DNA of 64,000 nt, taken from assembly GCA_050250895.1 (NCBI GenBank), contig JBFWNU010000008.1:160001-224000 (forward strand), written 5' to 3'. This document shows, piece after piece, positions 2,199 to 50,849 of the stretch (positions are counted from its first letter, which is position 1; every line of letters begins with the position of its first letter). This DNA is from Vulcanimicrobiota bacterium (GTDB taxonomy: Bacteria > Vulcanimicrobiota > Xenobia > Xenobiales > JADMJV01). A program made the position numbers and the translations under genes. The notes under the pieces were generated by a model, which did no database searches, was not told where the DNA came from, and was given only the letters and a program-made list of their open reading frames with translations.

Positions 2199-2498
2199 AC
2201 TCGACGCTTCGGCGAGGAGGCTCGCGACCTTCTTAGCGGCGTCGGGTTTTTGCGGACGGTTTACGCGGCTGCTGCCCCTGCCGGGTGGTCAGCAATCCCA
2301 CCGGCAGGACCTCGGGGGCGGGCGTGGGCGTGGTGGGCAGCTTTTTCTTGGGTTTGGGAGCGATGGTGGGACGCTCGGACGAGCACGCGACTCCGTCGGC
2401 CAGGACCTGGTATTGCATCGTTCTCGTAATCATCCAGGCTCAGGATAACAGCTGTCACTTATTCTGTCAACAGTTTTCGTGTCAGACTGTCAAAGAAG

Positions 2499-3077
2499 GG
2501 GAGACGGCGCTGACGCGCGGAGATTTCGGCCTGACGGCCGACGGGGAGCGCCGACTTCGTCGGCGGGAGGGAGCCGGCGCTGGCGCGCGGAGATTTCGGC
2601 CTGCGGCCGACAGGGAGCGCCGACTTCGTCGGCGGGTGAGGAGCCGGCGCTGACGCGCGGAGATTTCGGCCTGCGGCCGACAGGGAGAGCGGCTGACGCC
2701 GCTGGAAGGAGCCGGCGCTGCGCGCGGAGATTTCGGCCTGCGGCCGACAGGGAGCGCCGACTTCGTCGGCGGGTGACCTTTTCCCGAACTGAGCGACAGC
2801 TCAGTTCGCTCCTTCCCGGCCCGAAGGGCCGCTCCTTATCCCTCGAGCGAAGCAAGAGCTCCTTCTCCCGAACTGAGCGACAGCTCAGTTCGCTCCTCTC
2901 CCGGCCCGAAGGGCCGCTCCTTATCCCTCGAGCGAAGCAAGAGCTCCTTCTCCCGACTGAGCGACAGCTCAGTCGCTCCTCTCCCGGCCCGAAGGGCCGC
3001 TCCTTATCCCTCGAGCGAAGCAAGAGCTCCTTCTCCCGAACTGAGCGACAGCTCAGTTCGCTCCTCTCCCGCGAGGG
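2499..3077. repeat. Bipartite hairpin array 1: four ~70-bp units with GGAG linkers, then ~3.3 units of 83-85 bp with CTCC linkers
   Basis: Left units start near 2500/2570/2640/2708 with hairpins TCGGCC-tgc-GGCCGA and CGCCGAC-ttc-GTCGGCG. Right units start at 2785/2869/2954/3037 with CGAACTGAGC-gaca-GCTCAGTTCG and CGGCCC-gaa-GGGCCG. Confidence 0.95.
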
Positions 3078-4982
3078 CTAGACGGCTTGTTCAAAGGTGA
3101 TCGAGGCGGCTGACTGGTGGAACTCTTCCTGGCGTCGTTCGAGTTCGCTAGCCAGTTTCTCGAGCAGAGCCCGTTTCTGGTCGAGCTGGTTCTCTTGTTG
3201 TTCGAGGGTGACTACGTAGCGGGTGCGCAGACGACCCTCGTCGTGGGAAGGGCCCAGGCTCGACAGATTGGCCCGCAGGCGTTCCTGGTCGGCGGTGATG
3301 GTCTCGATCTCTTGACGGGTACGTTCTTGCTTTTGGTTGAGCTTGGTCAAGCTCTGGGCCAGTTGCATCAACTCTCGCAAGACCGGTTGCTGATCAGGCT
3401 CGATGTAGCCCCGCTCGATATAGACCTCGAGTTTGTCCGAGGTAAGATGGGCCAGTCTGACCACCTGGGATTGGGGGATGCGCTCGCTGATGGTGAACTC
3501 GGTGGTCGCGTTCGGTTGGAGCTTGACTTCGAAGCGGTAGCGGTCGACCGCCTTCGTGATAGGGGAGGGGGTTTTGTAGAGTTCGGCTCCCGAGCGGATG
3601 GGATGTTCCAGGATGCAGGTCTTGGCCCGGCCGTCCTTATTGAGGAAGCGGTGCAATCGGTGCTCCAAGAAGGCATAGTGCAGATGCAGTACCCCCTCCG
3701 AGGCCACCACCAGGTGGACATCCTCTTGCTTGTGCTGGGTCTCGCAGTCGACTTCGCAACCGAGGTCGACGGCATAGGGAATCAGGCGCACCTCGTCGGG
3801 GTGCAAAAGTGTGAGCATGGCCTCCCCGGCGTAGGTATCACCGTCATAGACCACGCACGGTCCGCCCTCGAGGGTGAGCCCGGTCGTGTTGGTGAATTCC
3901 AGGGCGGCAAAGGGATTGCGGGCCCTCTCCAGACGGTTGTAGAGGGTCACCCGACGCCCCTGGCCCGACTGGCTGACGATGGGGACCAGGGCGGATTGGT
4001 TGCGACGCACCGTGACCGGGTGCTCGAGCTTGTATTCGAAGAGTTCGCCCAGGCTCTGGGTCTGCACTTCCGGCGTGGGAGCCCCGCCGCCGCCTCGCTG
4101 TTCTCGCATCATCATTCCATCGAGCATGGCAGCCGAAGGCTTGCAAGCGATTCGAACGGCCTTATCCCGCGGGCTGGCTTCGTCTTCTTCTATCTCGACG
4201 GTCTCTCGCTGAACGTAGCGTGGTGAGTAGAGATCGTGCACGAACGACACGGGCAGACCGGCCACCAGCGACAGCTCGACATCTTCCCAGTCTTCATCGT
4301 GGGTGTTGTCGATCAGCGCCCAGCCTTGCAAAAAGGGTTGATCGCTCTCCTCCTCGGGCAGCGCCACTCGATAAGAGGTTTTCCAAACCGGGCATTCTAC
4401 CACATAGCTCAGCTGGATCTTGCGTTGGCCCTTGCCCCGAGCGTGGACCGACAGGGTCTTGGCGTCGCGCTTGGTGGCGGCCACCAGGGTTTCGAAGTAG
4501 AATTCGAGGTCTTTGCGGATATGGGGGTCGAGAAATTGTAGCTCACTGCACTCGGCCAGGTCGACGGTGTGCAGACGCCCCTCCTGATCGAGCAGGCTCA
4601 ACAGCTGGGCCTCGGTGACGCCGTCAGCCGAGCGGGTGGGCTGGGTCTGCACCCCTACCACCCGGCCGGCCAGTTGGCGCGTGCCCGCCTTCAGCTCGAG
4701 GCGGGCCCCGCGGATCTGGCCCAGCAAAGCTGCCCCGCCGCCCTTGGCGGGAATGTCGATAGCCACTTCTTGCAGCAGCTTTTCGACCGGCTTCTGAGCG
4801 TCATACGAGACCGAGTGGATGGTGCCACCGTCAAGGTCATAGAGGGTCAGCGACTTGAGCACGTCGTTCATCTCGAACGAGCGAAAGGTCAGCTTGAGTT
4901 CGTGATCCCCCTTCACCGGCTCGATTCTCTCGAAGTAGCCCACTCCGTGTTTGTACAGCACGACTCGCTTGATTCCGGCCAT
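3078..4982 (-). CDS. DUF4139 domain-containing protein
   Basis: RVVLYKHGVGYFER, MNDVLKSL, PVWKTSYR and LQGWALIDN...EDW motifs, C-terminal coiled coil, AGGAGG RBS upstream. Confidence 0.8.
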   Translation of the reverse strand: MAGIKRVVLYKHGVGYFERIEPVKGDHELKLTFRSFEMNDVLKSLTLYDLDGGTIHSVSYDAQKPVEKLLQEVAIDIPAKGGGAALLGQIRGARLELKAGTRQLAGRVVGVQTQPTRSADGVTEAQLLSLLDQEGRLHTVDLAECSELQFLDPHIRKDLEFYFETLVAATKRDAKTLSVHARGKGQRKIQLSYVVECPVWKTSYRVALPEEESDQPFLQGWALIDNTHDEDWEDVELSLVAGLPVSFVHDLYSPRYVQRETVEIEEDEASPRDKAVRIACKPSAAMLDGMMMREQRGGGGAPTPEVQTQSLGELFEYKLEHPVTVRRNQSALVPIVSQSGQGRRVTLYNRLERARNPFAALEFTNTTGLTLEGGPCVVYDGDTYAGEAMLTLLHPDEVRLIPYAVDLGCEVDCETQHKQEDVHLVVASEGVLHLHYAFLEHRLHRFLNKDGRAKTCILEHPIRSGAELYKTPSPITKAVDRYRFEVKLQPNATTEFTISERIPQSQVVRLAHLTSDKLEVYIERGYIEPDQQPVLRELMQLAQSLTKLNQKQERTRQEIETITADQERLRANLSSLGPSHDEGRLRTRYVVTLEQQENQLDQKRALLEKLASELERRQEEFHQSAASITFEQAV

Positions 4983-13696: not shown

Positions 13697-14154
13697 GCGC
13701 TCGCTTCGCTCGCGCCGGGGAGCTGCGACGGCTTTGCCGTCGAGAAAGGAGCTGCGACGGCTTTGCCGTCGAGAAAGGAGCGCCGGCTGCGCCGTCGAGA
13801 GGGGAGCCGGGCTGCGCCCGGAGATGGGAGCGCTGGCTTCGCTTGCGCTCGCCAGCGAGGACGGCTTCGCCGTCGGCAGCCAGGCCCTTCGTGGCCGAAG
13901 GCCATCGAAGGTTTGCGGCCGCAGGCCGCCTATCTAATCCCTCGAAACGAGCGACAGCGAGTTTCGCTCCTATCTCGGAGCTTGCTCCGCTCCCATCTCA
14001 AGCCGAAGGCTGCTCCTTTCTCGGCCACGCAGTGGCCGCTTCCTTCTCGCGAGCAACGCGAGCGTCGGCTCCTTTCTCAGCCACGCAGTGGCCGCTCCCT
14101 TCTCGCGAGCGTAGCGAGCGTTGCTCCTTTTCTCGGCCACGCAGTGGCCGCTCC
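13696..14154. repeat. Bipartite hairpin array 2 (left flank of the four-helix-bundle gene)
   Basis: Hairpins separated by AGAnnGGAG (left half), then CTCCnnTCT (right half). The 66-bp core at 13905-13970 is identical to 14788-14853. Confidence 0.95.
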
Positions 14155-14161
14155 CTACTCG

Positions 14162-14536
14162 CTACTGGGCCTGAGGTTCTGCCAAGAGTCTGCGACTCAG
14201 GCCTGTCAAGATGCGTCGCATCTCGGCGATGCAGCCCATCACTTGCTTGAGGTCTTCGGGACGCAGATACTCGAGCTTCAAGCTAATCAGAAACAGAGTT
14301 TCCACCTCGGCCAGACTTCCCCGCGCGACTCCCACATGGTAAGCGAAGGTGCGAACGGATTCGCGCGCCTGCCCCTCGGCGAGGTTGGCGACGATGGAGA
14401 CACTAGCTCGACGAAGTTGGCTTGTCAGGCCAAACTGTTCATTGCTCGGGAGGCGGCTTGTCAGTCGATAGACGAGCGGAACGAATTCCATTCCCTTTTG
14501 CCAGGCTGCGAGTTGTTTGTATGGTAAATGATGCAT
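14162..14536 (-). CDS. Four-helix-bundle protein (23S rRNA IVP / TIGR02436 family, Avd-like fold)
   Basis: YKQLAAWQKGM, LPSNEQFGLTSQLRRASVSIVANLAEG and ARGSLAEVET signatures. Confidence 0.93.
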   Translation of the reverse strand: MHHLPYKQLAAWQKGMEFVPLVYRLTSRLPSNEQFGLTSQLRRASVSIVANLAEGQARESVRTFAYHVGVARGSLAEVETLFLISLKLEYLRPEDLKQVMGCIAEMRRILTGLSRRLLAEPQAQ

Positions 14537-14585
14537 CGAGGCTTCTTCGACCCGACGTTTGCCGCTCCCGTCGAACGAATGTCCA

Positions 14586-15005
14586 GAGCGACGGCTTTGC
14601 CGAGGATCGCCGGCTGCGCCGTCGAGACAGGAGCGCTCGCTGCGCTCGCGAGATGGGAGCGCTGGCTTCGCTTGCGCTCGCCAGCGAGGAGGGAGCGCCG
14701 GCTGCGCCGTCGAGACAGGAGCCGGGCTGCGCCCGGAGATGGGAGCACTGGCCTCGCTTGCGCTCGCCAGCGAGGACGGCTTCGCCGTCGAAGGTTTGCG
14801 GCCGCAGGCCGCCTATCTAATCCCTCGAAACGAGCGACAGCGAGTTTCGCTCCCATCTCGGAGCTCTGCTCCGGTCCCATCTCCGGCCGAAGGCCGGCTC
14901 CTTTCTCGGCCACGCAGTGGCCGCTCCCTTCTCGCGAGCGTAGCGAGCGTTGCTCCTTTCTCGGCCACGCAGTGGCCGCTCCCCTTCTCGCGAGCGTAGC
15001 GAGCG
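14586..15005. repeat. Bipartite hairpin array 3 (right flank of the four-helix-bundle gene), a direct-repeat variant of array 2
   Basis: Same modules (CGCCGGC-tgc-GCCGTCG, CCGGGC-tgc-GCCCGG, CGGCCAC-gca-GTGGCCG, CGCGAGC-gta-GCGAGCG) in different number and order, with the identical 66-bp core. Confidence 0.95.
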
Positions 15006-15089
15006 AACATGGCCCGAACGGGTGATTGGCAGGCCAGGGTGCCTCCCGTATGCTTGAAAGCAAATCTACCCTTGGGAGGCGCATTTCCT

Positions 15090-48128: not shown

Positions 48129-50849
48129 ATGGCCTCATCATCAGATTCCTTGACCCTCGAGGAACAGCTCAACGAACTCCGCGAGGAGAACCGCGGTCTG
48201 CGCGAGCAGATCTCCGGTCCCGACCTGAGCGCGTTCGAGCAAAACCGCCAGCTCAAGATCGAACGCAAGAAGCTGCAGGATGACGTCCGCCGGTTGACTT
48301 CAGAGTGTGTCCAATTGACCTTCCAGATCCGCGAACTCGAGGGCAAGCTGTCTGACACCGAGGGCAAACTCCAGGCCACCGAAGGAAAGCTTCGCGATGC
48401 CGAAGACCAGCTGCGCCAGGCCCACGAAGAGGCCGATGGGTACCGGGCCAGCATCGAACAGCATCGCTCTCAGGAGATGATGCTCAGCCAGGAGCTTGAA
48501 GATACACGGACTACCAACGCCGACACTTTGAAAAAGCTCGAGCAAGAGCGCGAAGAGCAGCTTCGCCAGCTTGAGCAAGAACGCGAGCAAGAGCGGCGCC
48601 GGCTCGAAGAGGAGCGGGAAGCGGCTCTGGCCGAGGCCGAAGAGCGGATGCAATCCGAGATCGCCCAGCGCGAGGGCCAGATCGGCGAGCTGCGTCAGCG
48701 GGTGGATGAGTTCAAAGAGCAGTTCTTGAGCACCGAACTGCCGGCGCTGGATGCCGACGCGTCGATCGGAGAAGGACGCGCCTTCTCGCTGTTGACCGAG
48801 CATCTCGAGCGTTTGCTCGGCTATCCCGGTCGGACCCTGGTCGAGCAGGTCTTCTCGCTCTGCCGGGCCGATTTCTCCACCTCCGATCCCAAGCAGCTCG
48901 AAGACGTCTTCGAGGCCCTGCAAGACACCGCCAGCAAACTGGTGCGCAGTCCCGACCAGGAGAAAGAGTTGGCCGACGTACTGGCGGCATGCTGGGCCGA
49001 ACTTGGCGTGTCCGAAGAGCGGCCGGCCAGGACGGCTGAGGCGACCCCCACCGAACCCGAGCCCGAGTCGGTCGAAGAGACGCCGACCGCCCCCGAGCGC
49101 GAGGTGGTCGAAGAAGCTGCCGTCGAAGAGGACGTGAGCGAGGAACCGGTGGTCGAAGAACCCGTGGTCGAGGAACCCGTGGTCGAGGAACCGGTGGTGG
49201 AAGAGCCGGTTGTCGAAGAACCCGTGGTCGAGGAGCCGGTGGTAGAAGAGCCCGTGGCAGAAGAGCCCGCTGCCGAAGAAGCAGAGAGCGAGCCGGAGGT
49301 GGCCGAGGCTGTGGCCGAAGGAGCCGCCACCGGTGCGGCTACTGGTGAGGTCACCTTCGAATCCGCCGTCGCGCTGCTTCACGAAGGCCAGTTTGACCAG
49401 GCGGCCGCCCAGTTCGAAACGTTGCGGTCGGGTGATGGCGGCAACGAGGTCAGTGTCGGGCTGATGAGCGCCCAGATCGGAGCCGGTCGGGTCGACGACG
49501 CGGTGGAGCTGGGTCTGAACCTGCGAGGCCAGGACCTTGGCGAAGCCGAAGAACAGTTCCGCAGCGTCTGGGAAACGACCCTGACGACCAAGCTCAAGAA
49601 CCCGGACAGCGACCTGCAACGCAAACGGCTGCTGCTCGCCCTGGCCGAGCTCAAGTTGCCTGCCGAGGCGGGACTCGAAGCTCTCGACGAAGCCGAGCAG
49701 ATTCCGGTTCGGCTCGACGAAGACGGCTTGCTCAGCTACTATCAGGTCGTCTCGCGAGTCGACAATGAGGATGTCACCGCCTATCTGCTCGACTACATGC
49801 ACTCGCTGGGCGATAAGCCCGAGTTGTTCGAGCATCTCTCCAAGAACTTTTCGCGCTATCCCGAAATCGCCAAGGTGGCCGAAGCGGTCGTGGCGCTGGC
49901 CGGACAATCCCGAACCGGGGCCCAGGAGGCCGAAGAGGCGGCCGGCGAGTTGCTCGCCCCGCAGTACGCTACCCGTGAGATGGCCGAGGAGATCGGTGAC
50001 CCCGGCGAAGAGGCCATGGTCGAGGTCTTTCTCGACCACCTGATCCCCCGGGCCGGCCTCGAATTGCCGGTGCCGTCCGACGAGTTCGAAGAGTTTCTCC
50101 ATGACTCCGAGCCGGCCGCGTTCGTAGGTTCGCTGCGCCAGGCTCTGCGCAACATCGACTATACCGTCTTCTTTGAGGAGATCGAGGTGTTGAGTTATGC
50201 GGGCGAGGCCGATTTTCTGGTCGAGAGCTGTCCTGAGCCCACGCCCACGCTGCTGTTCCACTCCAAGGTCGAGAACGTGCCGCCCGAAGAGTTACGTTTT
50301 CTGGTTTTTCGCCGGCTGGTTCAGATGTATCGTCGCCACGCCTATCTCGAACATATGGCCCGCGCTCTCGACGACGCCGCCCGTTGCAAGCTGGTCAAAG
50401 CTTGCATCGAGATTCACCAAGAATCCGAGTACGAGATTTCGCCGATGCTGGTCAGCCGGCTGGCAGAGATCTCGGCCCAGGCGGGGGAGGGCGATGACCC
50501 CGAGGTGCGCGGCCAACTCGACGCCTTGCTGGACAAGCTGTATGCCGACACCGGCAGCGACAGTTTCATCGAGCTGGGCGACTTTCTCTATGACAACCAG
50601 CTGGCCAAGAAATGGCTGGACCCGCTGGCCGACCAGTTCGCCGCCTCGGTGGTGGGTCTCACCACCGCGAGCTATGCGACCGCTCGCGATATGGTAGACG
50701 ATGAGCTATTTAGCGAACTCGAGGCCAAGGGTCTGGGTTTGCTCTGGCAAGACGAAAACCGCGAGCAGTACGAAGAACTTCGGCTGCGCTTGCAGCGACT
50801 CTGGCTTGGACCCCTCAAAGCGGCCAGCTACGAACTCGAAGAAGAATAA
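48129..50849 (+). CDS. Large acidic protein with N-terminal coiled coil, EEPVV repeats and helical C-terminus
   Basis: AGGAG RBS before MASSS. Heptad-rich N-terminus. Confidence 0.8.
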   Translation: MASSSDSLTLEEQLNELREENRGLREQISGPDLSAFEQNRQLKIERKKLQDDVRRLTSECVQLTFQIRELEGKLSDTEGKLQATEGKLRDAEDQLRQAHEEADGYRASIEQHRSQEMMLSQELEDTRTTNADTLKKLEQEREEQLRQLEQEREQERRRLEEEREAALAEAEERMQSEIAQREGQIGELRQRVDEFKEQFLSTELPALDADASIGEGRAFSLLTEHLERLLGYPGRTLVEQVFSLCRADFSTSDPKQLEDVFEALQDTASKLVRSPDQEKELADVLAACWAELGVSEERPARTAEATPTEPEPESVEETPTAPEREVVEEAAVEEDVSEEPVVEEPVVEEPVVEEPVVEEPVVEEPVVEEPVVEEPVAEEPAAEEAESEPEVAEAVAEGAATGAATGEVTFESAVALLHEGQFDQAAAQFETLRSGDGGNEVSVGLMSAQIGAGRVDDAVELGLNLRGQDLGEAEEQFRSVWETTLTTKLKNPDSDLQRKRLLLALAELKLPAEAGLEALDEAEQIPVRLDEDGLLSYYQVVSRVDNEDVTAYLLDYMHSLGDKPELFEHLSKNFSRYPEIAKVAEAVVALAGQSRTGAQEAEEAAGELLAPQYATREMAEEIGDPGEEAMVEVFLDHLIPRAGLELPVPSDEFEEFLHDSEPAAFVGSLRQALRNIDYTVFFEEIEVLSYAGEADFLVESCPEPTPTLLFHSKVENVPPEELRFLVFRRLVQMYRRHAYLEHMARALDDAARCKLVKACIEIHQESEYEISPMLVSRLAEISAQAGEGDDPEVRGQLDALLDKLYADTGSDSFIELGDFLYDNQLAKKWLDPLADQFAASVVGLTTASYATARDMVDDELFSELEAKGLGLLWQDENREQYEELRLRLQRLWLGPLKAASYELEEE
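49140..49274 (+). repeat. Coding 15-bp tandem repeat: (EEPVV)x7 plus EEPVA and EEPAA
   Basis: Direct translation. Synonymous codons vary between units. Confidence 0.92.

Follow-up and report, generated by a model that had tools for sequence, protein, structure and literature searches.

Short tandem repeats with a G-rich strand have been described between the genes of several bacteria. In Xanthomonas, GGGAATC heptamers form 70–75 convergent pairs, are 89–93% intergenic, and follow a positional rule whereby a G-rich strand in sense orientation closely trails a stop codon and one in antisense orientation precedes an open reading frame (ORF), and they were interpreted as G-quadruplex formers (Rehm et al., 2015; PMC4692102). 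According to the supplement of the same paper, one repeat (#15) lies in the gap from XCC0517 to XCC0516 and overlaps the start annotated for the latter gene. More loosely related are the TAACTGA repeats that Beggiatoaceae carry (PMC4679880). A second kind of element, the intervening sequence (IVS) of 23S rRNA, may carry an ORF for the protein S23p. In Coxiella, the IVS with its S23p ORF is reported to have two to three tandem heptamers at its 5′ end, which vary among strains, and to be excised by RNase III at the first repeat; the authors concluded that its S23p is unlikely to be produced in vivo (Warrier et al., 2016; PMC4990558). Heptamer repeats (of cyanobacteria, Xanthomonas, and Beggiatoaceae) and S23p-bearing IVSs have been known for decades, without a mechanism for them and without a link between them. 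The STRR heptamers of cyanobacteria are, again, looser relatives of the arrays considered here. The subject of this study is an intergenic hairpin array, locus A, at positions 2499–3077 of a 64,000-nt stretch of a Vulcanimicrobiota bacterium genome (GenBank assembly GCA_050250895.1, contig JBFWNU010000008.1, positions 160,001–224,000 of the forward strand; hereafter, the window). It belongs to a large family of such arrays, whose cognate gene family is likely PF05635, the family of S23p, and whose simpler relatives are likely the inverted G-rich heptamer arrays, points that, like the absence of the family from the 400 other genomes sampled, go beyond the original prediction made from the letters of this DNA.

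Locus A consists of two arms of opposite orientation. The left, G-type arm (2499–2776, + strand) comprises four units of ~70 nt (Tandem Repeats Finder (TRF), 2500–2776: period 70, 4.0 copies, 86% matches), each made of three GC hairpins with GGAG-containing purine linkers between them on the + strand. The right arm (2777–3077), which is C-type on the + strand and G-type on the − strand, holds 3.5 units of 85 nt (TRF, 2777–3071: period 85, 3.5 copies, 97% matches), in which a 10-bp GACA-loop hairpin, a CGGCCC-GAA-GGGCCG hairpin, and a weaker third hairpin are connected by CTCC..TC(C/T)C linkers, the reverse-complement grammar of the left arm. The original prediction had proposed this bipartite architecture, with left units of ~70 bp and right units of 83–85 bp, and the TRF periods together with the sequence bear it out. 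The finer variation that it described is also present: in left unit 3, CGCCGAC-ttc-GTCGGCG has given way to AGCGGC-tgac-GCCGCT (2688–2703); relative to the copies at ~2786 and ~2871, one base per arm is missing from the GACA-loop hairpin at 2954–2975; and at 13.94 and 14.83 kb the CTCC halves begin with a related GACA-loop hairpin. The interval between the two arms is ~13 nt and contains no PF05635-family ORF. The locus is flanked by the fpg-side genes and by a gene for a DUF4139 protein, assigned by Pfam, directly after whose stop codon (3078–3080) the right arm starts on the − strand; no rRNA match occurs in the window. Folded in silico as a single strand, 2495–3080 has a minimum free energy (MFE) of −336.5 kcal/mol, compared with −289.7 ± 6.3 for 30 dinucleotide shuffles (z = −7.5), and the two further arrays of the window, loci B and C, give z = −8.9 and −11.5 against such shuffles. 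Besides local hairpins, the MFE folds contain 105, 111, and 112 centre-spanning base pairs at loci A, B, and C, respectively.

The family is abundant in its genome (9.50 Mb, 63% G+C, 17 contigs, 99.64% complete). A regular expression for the linker detected 117 arms, 66 G-type and 51 C-type, which fall into 84 loci and total 20.4 kb, and GAGANNGGAG-N10-24-GAGANNGGAG matched 132 + 112 times, compared with 0 for the reversed control. BLAST places the 71-nt left unit of locus A at 37 genomic positions and its 86-nt right unit at 34, locus A being counted in each, and finds the right module as a whole at ~10 loci with 85–96% identity. Locus A is a member of a subfamily, and its unit order reappears in both arms of full paralogs (C1:201.7k, 1590.0k, 2407.6k, 3090.5k, and C1:208.0k). 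Locus A had been called a solo array; it is indeed gene-less, but it is far from alone, and the dispersed element family proposed at the same time is borne out by these counts. Exact-match sharing is low, with only 35 of 345 segments present in at least two loci and two of 383 adjacent pairs shared. Taken by itself, the exact-match test suggested no dispersal of modules, whereas BLAST with mismatches revealed dispersed modules; the loci are thus diverged relatives in which tandem amplification has also taken place locally. The order of the arms is nearly invariant: a G run is followed by a C run in 39 cases and a C run by a G run in two, loci A, B, and C likewise run G then C, and four control motif pairs are symmetric (15/13, 6/3, 2/3, and 7/9). 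The orientation ratio, like the spacing analysis below, uses a looser definition of GGAG/CTCC runs, which was applied to nothing else and places 269 of 634 runs inside crude genes. Many arms open, on the inner side, with a head module of ~65 nt that is composed of a short hairpin, a TA-containing linker, and a long GACA-loop hairpin; its copies at loci B and C are 100% identical, and ~12 further copies are 86–96% identical. The head module was also considered as an outward sigma-70 promoter, a candidate that was rejected: by eye, the spacing of TT(G)ACG..TAnCT is an inconsistent 12–15 nt, and a consensus scan found none in the heads.

Splitting the arms at GGAG gave 587 segments of 12–45 nt, 345 of them distinct. 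The modal unit is 26 nt long and reads GGAG, C, a 7-bp stem, a 3-nt loop, and G-AGA-nn. Among the 244 units with a stem of at least 4, the loop on the G-rich strand is most often TGC (61), TTC (57), or TTT (18), which correspond to GCA, GAA, and AAA on the C-rich strand, where GCA or GAA occurs in 118 of the 244. In 74 distinct 26-nt units, 86% of the stem cells are Watson–Crick pairs, compared with a mean of 59% and a maximum of 65% when partners were shuffled (500 shuffles), and several pair types occur at four stem positions. Because of this level of pairing and the several pair types, the stems can be said to remain paired while their sequence changes. Covariation without sequence conservation is unusual in a DNA repeat and points to a constraint on a single-stranded form. 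Two mismatches recur in the same 74 units, T/C at pair 3-13 (21 units) and C/T at pair 4-12 (19 units), and would be tandem G·A pairs on the C-rich strand only. A G stands directly before GGAG, giving a GGG tract, in 45 of the 74 units; in the other 29 the base is A (28) or C (1). The commonest GGAG–GGAG spacing is 7 nt (212 cases), with further modes at 19, 26, and 27 nt. For this reason, the arm backbone looks like a heptamer-like purine linker (GGAG-nnn-GGAG, in 7-nt steps) with a GC hairpin on most steps; locus A has almost no bare 7-nt GGAG steps, and most steps in the genome are 17–19 or 26–27 nt long. The amplified unit is a higher-order block of two to three units, and arms grow or shrink via duplication of such multi-unit blocks.

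The arms avoid genes. Crude gene calls, which cover ~82% of the genome, overlap less than 20% of the length in 113 of the 117 arms. On its outer side an arm adjoins a gene, and on its inner side it looks towards its partner (median 87 vs. 513 nt), and the arms extend outward to the neighbouring gene, either directly after its stop codon or short of its promoter. Where the outer neighbour runs in the same direction as the G-rich strand, the median gap from stop codon to first linker is 43 nt, 27 of 57 falling within 40 nt, and some arms begin 0–8 nt after the stop; where the neighbour runs in the opposite direction, its start is a median of 215 nt away. The two orientations are about equally common (57 vs. 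54 arms).

The GAGANNGGAG array pattern was also searched in 30 relatives and in an even sample of 400 other genomes across the phylum. Hairpin-type hits were found in none of these, many of which are draft or metagenome assemblies where repeats may be under-assembled; the few pattern matches elsewhere are 7-nt or 15-nt microsatellites (97 in G018, 7 in G033, 5 in G038, 8 in G279, and 4 in G047). Comparison with the sister species G001, of the same genus, shows that the arrays were gained here relative to it. The interval between the isocitrate lyase (ICL) gene and amt is ~230 nt in G001 and 1,395 nt here, where it contains two arrays and a PF05635 gene; the G001 ICL protein is 89% identical, and its gene is followed by a hairpin and a T-run after the stop codon, with no arrays and no PF05635 gene in the interval. 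The array after the ICL gene thus stands where the sister species has a terminator-like hairpin. A second interval measures 152 nt in G001 and 1,152 nt here, and its array stops shortly before a conserved tRNA promoter region. Two further test intervals gave no comparison, their flanks being on different contigs or unmatched. A search for an empty site between fpg and the DUF4139 gene, which the original prediction had recommended, yielded none at that place, since fpg of G001 has a different neighbour and the interval of locus A is not conserved there (the DUF4139 protein, used as a query against the genome contigs, had no match); the empty sites are those of the two other orthologous intervals.

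Loci B and C occupy the ICL–amt interval and enclose a gene. The G-type arm of locus B (13697–13904, + strand; TRF periods 26/29) begins 1 nt after the ICL stop codon, the ICL being assigned by Pfam, and is followed by a head module (13905–13969, +) that is 100% identical to 14788–14852, and by a C-type arm (13966–14161, G-type on the − strand; TRF period 56), which abuts the stop codon of a PF05635/TIGR02436 gene (14162–14536, − strand, 124 aa, four-helix bundle). Beyond this gene, which lies between two complete bipartite arrays, locus C consists of a G-type arm (14585–14787, +; TRF period 86, 2.0 copies, 90%) and of the head (14788–14852) plus a C-type arm (together 14788–15003, −), ending ~90 nt before the probable amt start codon. 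Outside the C-type arm of locus C, upstream of this ammonium transporter gene, 15027–15042 reads TGGCAG-N5-GGTGC, which by eye resembles a sigma-54 (−24/−12) promoter. The product of 14162–14536 matches Pfam PF05635 (E 1.2e-31), NCBIfam TIGR02436, and, weakly, NF033474. Among solved structures, the best relative is Xanthomonas campestris XCC0516 (PDB 2GSC; E 4e-24), so that the protein gene adjoining repeat #15 of Rehm et al. (2015) is itself a PF05635 gene. Members of the PF05635 family are encoded in some 23S rRNA IVSs, and the family is related to Avd, a nucleic-acid-binding protein of diversity-generating retroelements (PMC10053308). The genome encodes only three PF05635 proteins, 55–56% identical to one another, and all three genes stand between two complete bipartite arrays.

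Two observations concern gene-bearing loci. All three PF05635 genes are preceded by a conserved piece of ~20 nt (TGGACA..CGTTCGACGGGA), located in the interval that separates gene and adjacent arm (window 14537–14584, C2:653.4k, and C6:48.68k), which may be a promoter or operator of the cassette. At C9:189250–190200, a DUF433 gene (E 4.9e-19), probably with a partner ORF, is found between two arrays.

Outside this genome, PF05635 is likewise tied to inverted repeats. Among the 30 relatives, it was detected only in G018, which has two intact genes, and in G030, which has fragments. G018 belongs to another family of the same order and is the sole relative rich in GGGAGAT/GGGAGAC/GGGAGTA heptamer arrays; one of its PF05635 genes (L113) lies between a G-type and a C-type heptamer array, and a gene-less bipartite heptamer array (L017) directly follows a stop codon. 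Heptamer arrays were seen in G018 at L017, L020, L113, and L116. At 12 PF05635 loci of five other genomes of the phylum (PF05635 loci in phylum genomes: L113–L130), period-7 arrays mostly stand on both sides, and the heptamer differs from lineage to lineage. A metagenome survey starting from six aligned proteins yielded 80 PF05635 loci (L131–L210), for which 80 ICL loci served as controls. Within 200 nt of PF05635, the density of period-7 arrays is 4.46 per kb (136 in 30,525 bp); it falls to 0.31 per kb farther out at the same 80 loci and is 0.058 per kb (31 in 537,048 bp) at the control loci, a 77-fold enrichment beside PF05635. Arrays occur on both sides in 51 of the 80 loci, and among these 51 the upstream heptamer is the reverse complement of the downstream one, with at most one mismatch, in 44 and a direct match in nine. 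The nearest upstream array is G-rich in 42 of 57 cases and the nearest downstream array C-rich in 47 of 64. From the reverse-complement counts and this upstream G-rich, downstream C-rich order, the usual design is (G-rich heptamer)n, ORF, (complement)n, that is, a bipartite array with a central gene. The heptamers beside PF05635 in other lineages are often not rich in G tracts, for example CTTAATT and AGTGACG. These results show that the link between PF05635 and inverted heptamer arrays is general. In the literature searched, which excluded subscription journals and bioRxiv supplements, neither a general link between gene and heptamers nor hairpin-bearing arrays were found, the only mention being the note on the single Coxiella IVS locus; the words 'S23' and 'intervening' do not occur in the main text of the Xanthomonas paper (PMC4692102) or in that of the Beggiatoaceae paper (PMC4679880), nor 'helix bundle' in the latter. 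The tie between PF05635 and inverted heptamer arrays, of which no general statement was found in that literature, is the most valuable by-product of this analysis.

The reading that we prefer, tentatively and at a little short of an even chance, is that locus A derives from an IVS-type inverted-heptamer element, has no gene, and bears hairpins in addition; the element would be primarily selfish, and its arms would pair as an RNA rod. Two oppositely oriented arms with the G-rich strand first make up one long imperfect palindrome. On read-through from a flanking gene, the GGAG linkers of the first arm would pair with the CUCC linkers of the second, giving a long rod from which the side hairpins protrude. 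RNase III, the known processor of IVS stems, whose gene is present in this genome, might cut the stem, by analogy with the rRNA intervening sequences; alternatively, the 3′ end of the upstream mRNA might be set or stabilised by the stem, and the gene that follows insulated. The PF05635 protein might or might not have a part in this. A wider proposal, possible but doubtful, is that PF05635 genes and intergenic heptamer repeats form one widespread class of transposase-less selfish elements, in which an ORF sits in the stem loop of inverted arrays. Such elements would colonise rRNA helices and intergenic regions and leave gene-less arrays behind, the present genome having experienced a burst to more than 80 loci with a new hairpin unit, and the pentameric protein may recognise the arrays and aid their spread.

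Several observations weigh against the rod reading of locus A. The transcript-level steps, RNase III processing or 3′-end formation at the arrays, are ones that we infer only. Long-range pairing in an MFE fold arises almost automatically when a G-rich arm faces a C-rich arm, and a plain stem needs no side hairpins, so that their retention is left unexplained. The loops and the G·A pairs favour the C-rich strand, which hints at single-stranded DNA or outward transcription, not at inward read-through. For 54 of the 111 arms it is the 5′ end of the outer neighbour that lies opposite, so that many arms are beyond the reach of read-through, and for this reason an RNA role cannot be general. Locus A has neither a head module nor a PF05635 remnant. 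The PF05635 genes of this genome stand between two complete arrays (C arm, gene, G arm), an arrangement that is in the minority elsewhere, where a whole bipartite array lies on one side of PF05635 in 5 of 80 loci; and the array flanks are not exclusive to PF05635, because the DUF433 gene also lies between arrays. Moreover, most of the relatives are draft or metagenome assemblies, from which repeats may be missing.

One rival is a purely DNA-level origin, in which palindromic arrays derived from microsatellites are selfish or neutral, grow by replication slippage and unequal recombination, and can extrude as cruciforms or hairpins, with no RNA or protein partner and with a placement that reflects tolerance alone. 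Near-identical tandem blocks (97% in the right arm), a burst confined to one species, the tolerance of both gene orientations, and the halt of the arrays short of promoters would all be expected of it, and the features of the C-rich strand are typical of stable DNA mini-hairpins, GNA triloops being stable in DNA. Slippage alone, however, does not explain 80-nt modules at ~10 distant loci. Nor does this origin account for the strictness with which G precedes C (39:2), for the repeated association with PF05635, or for the covariation of stems in 74 units (although hairpin-templated repair could mimic the last), so that we regard this origin as rather unlikely. Alternatively, the arrays may be binding sites, in DNA or RNA, of the pentameric PF05635 protein, which would read the heptamer-like linkers and further the spread, maintenance, or recombination of the arrays, the gene-less ones being non-autonomous copies served in trans. 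The physical linkage of all three genes in this genome, the co-occurrence of gene and arrays in this genome (G000) and in G018, the 77-fold enrichment of period-7 arrays with lineage-specific heptamers beside the gene, and the kinship of the family with the nucleic-acid-binding Avd (a weak NF033474 match; PMC10053308) are consistent with such recognition. Against it, the binding is itself putative and the protein is not known to catalyse any reaction, the three paralogs are only 55–56% identical although the arrays share one linker grammar, Coxiella S23p is reported as probably not made in vivo (PMC4990558), and no reverse transcriptase (PF00078) is encoded in the genome, which makes a mechanism of the Avd–reverse transcriptase type unavailable; binding as the main explanation is accordingly improbable. 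The synthesis of heptamers by a reverse transcriptase- or telomerase-like activity with an Avd-like protein was rejected on the same absence of PF00078, a domain present in 15 of the 30 relatives.

The remaining explanations are less probable still. The positional rules agree with those reported for the quadruplex-forming repeats of Xanthomonas and Nostoc, and a GGG tract occurs in 45 of the 74 units, as would suit G-quadruplexes of the G-rich arm with the hairpins as structured loops, modulating transcription or translation of the neighbours. We consider this quite improbable, since 29 of the 74 units have no GGG tract there, the tracts are 26 nt apart, several linkers in the left arm of locus A are GGAG only, the complementary C arm nearby would compete via duplex formation, and the PF05635-adjacent heptamers of other lineages are often poor in G tracts. 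Linkers such as GAGACAGGAG and GAGAAAGGAG between stable hairpins, together with the one csrA gene in the genome, would fit arms that act as small RNAs and titrate CsrA or 30S subunits via single-stranded A(N)GGA or Shine–Dalgarno-like linkers. Such a role is very improbable: Rfam gave 0 matches in the whole window at the gathering threshold, the consensus scan found no promoter-like (sigma-70) or terminator-like site bounding the arms of locus A, the arrays number more than 80 loci in both orientations relative to genes, the sister species is without them, and the opposite arm would sequester the linkers. Least credible of all is a repetitive extragenic palindromic (REP) or bacterial interspersed mosaic element (BIME) family mobilised by a REP-associated tyrosine transposase (RAYT), despite the short GC-rich extragenic palindromes that often stand just after stop codons. 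REPs are defined by GTAG or CGTC tags and by their association with RAYTs (Di Nocera et al., 2013; PMC3733652). No such tag stands at the unit ends as read, the units, by eye, being bounded by GGAG-C ... G-AGA; PF01797, the Y1 transposase domain of RAYTs, has 0 matches in the 99.64%-complete genome, while the same search was positive in six of 14 control genomes; the units are direct and not alternating within an arm; and the stems are hypervariable, with 345 distinct segments of which only 35 recur in at least two loci. The original prediction, which excluded a classical REP/BIME, had named two findings that would overturn it, a lack of further copies and a cognate RAYT; the genome is rich in copies, and no RAYT was detected in it.

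Several features surround locus A without belonging to it. A sigma-70-like promoter of the leftward fpg-side genes (2442–2470, − strand; TTGACA-17-TATCCT with TG), predicted by the consensus scan (two promoter sites vs. 0.0 in shuffles), lies ~30 nt outside the left arm and marks the limit of the arm. The AT-richer stretch between the left arm and the fpg-side genes contains four TGTCA motifs (window 2453–2492), one of which is the −35 element of this predicted minus-strand promoter, and the four may be operator sites. A 66-aa ORF between fpg and the array (2233–2433, −) has no Pfam or NCBIfam match. Farther away, a 15/30/45-nt tandem repeat (49103–49280, ~12 copies of 15 nt, 75% matches) is presumably coding; it has no relation to the hairpin arrays. 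In another part of the genome, a large bipartite array has at its centre a second, unrelated tandem repeat family of ~70 nt in ~10 copies (C1:520200–521000), and an assembly gap of 10 N lies inside the G arm of the same array (near C1:520000). Because arrays replace ordinary terminators, as after the ICL gene, and fill intergenic space up to promoters, and because a run of N lies inside one of them, they matter for the annotation of 3′ ends, for operon prediction, and for assembly.

Compared with known repeat systems, the arrays share with CRISPR a regular spacing of ~26 nt and a unit with a conserved and a variable part. In contrast to CRISPR, no more than ~10 nt of the unit are conserved, the variable remainder is itself palindromic, blocks are tandemly duplicated, and more than 80 loci have inverted halves. 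An arm that repeats, head to tail, units with a variable palindrome and a short constant linker is the reverse of CRISPR logic, and no cas domain was found in the eight flanking ORFs scanned, in agreement with the earlier view that locus A is not a CRISPR array. With REP, BIME, and REPIN elements they have in common abundant, clustered, GC-rich extragenic palindromes that often lie 3′ of genes and are abundant in a species-specific manner. In the present arrays, unlike in REP/BIME, it is the linker that is conserved and not the palindrome, and the units are direct within an arm, with a single switch per locus.

The closest likeness is to the GGGNATC heptamers of Xanthomonas and Nostoc, as far as these are described, which also form tandem short G-rich units in convergent +/− pairs, ~90% intergenic and of variable copy number. 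The commonest linker spacing here is 7 nt, the rule of stop-codon proximity of that class applies (median 43 nt after stops, 215 nt from starts), and the plain GGGAGAT unit of G018 resembles the GGAG-atg-GGAG linker of this genome. The present arrays differ in the extra GC hairpin on most steps, which gives units of 17–19 or 26–27 nt with covarying, locus-specific stems, in the ~65-nt head module that opens many arms, and in the amplification of blocks of two to three units. Elhai and colleagues reportedly described, in 2008, very small mobile cyanobacterial repeats, which may bear on the hairpin modules inside heptamer arrays.

The 23S rRNA IVSs with an S23p/PF05635 ORF, reported from Coxiella, Leptospira, and others, resemble these elements in their stem-forming inverted repeats and in having no transposase; the same protein family adjoins the arrays here, and tandem heptamers have been reported next to the IVS ORF. 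Unlike an IVS, locus A contains no ORF; it has protein genes on both sides and is not inserted in 23S rRNA helix 25 or 45, and its arms are hundreds of nucleotides long and bear side hairpins. The general link between gene and array merges the function of heptamer repeats and that of S23p, or the IVS protein, into one testable question, for which this genome, with hundreds of units and three array-embedded PF05635 genes, offers an extreme and easily recognised form. The kind of element is known, that of the inverted G-rich heptamer arrays and IVS-type elements, and the variant found here is species-specific and hairpin-bearing.

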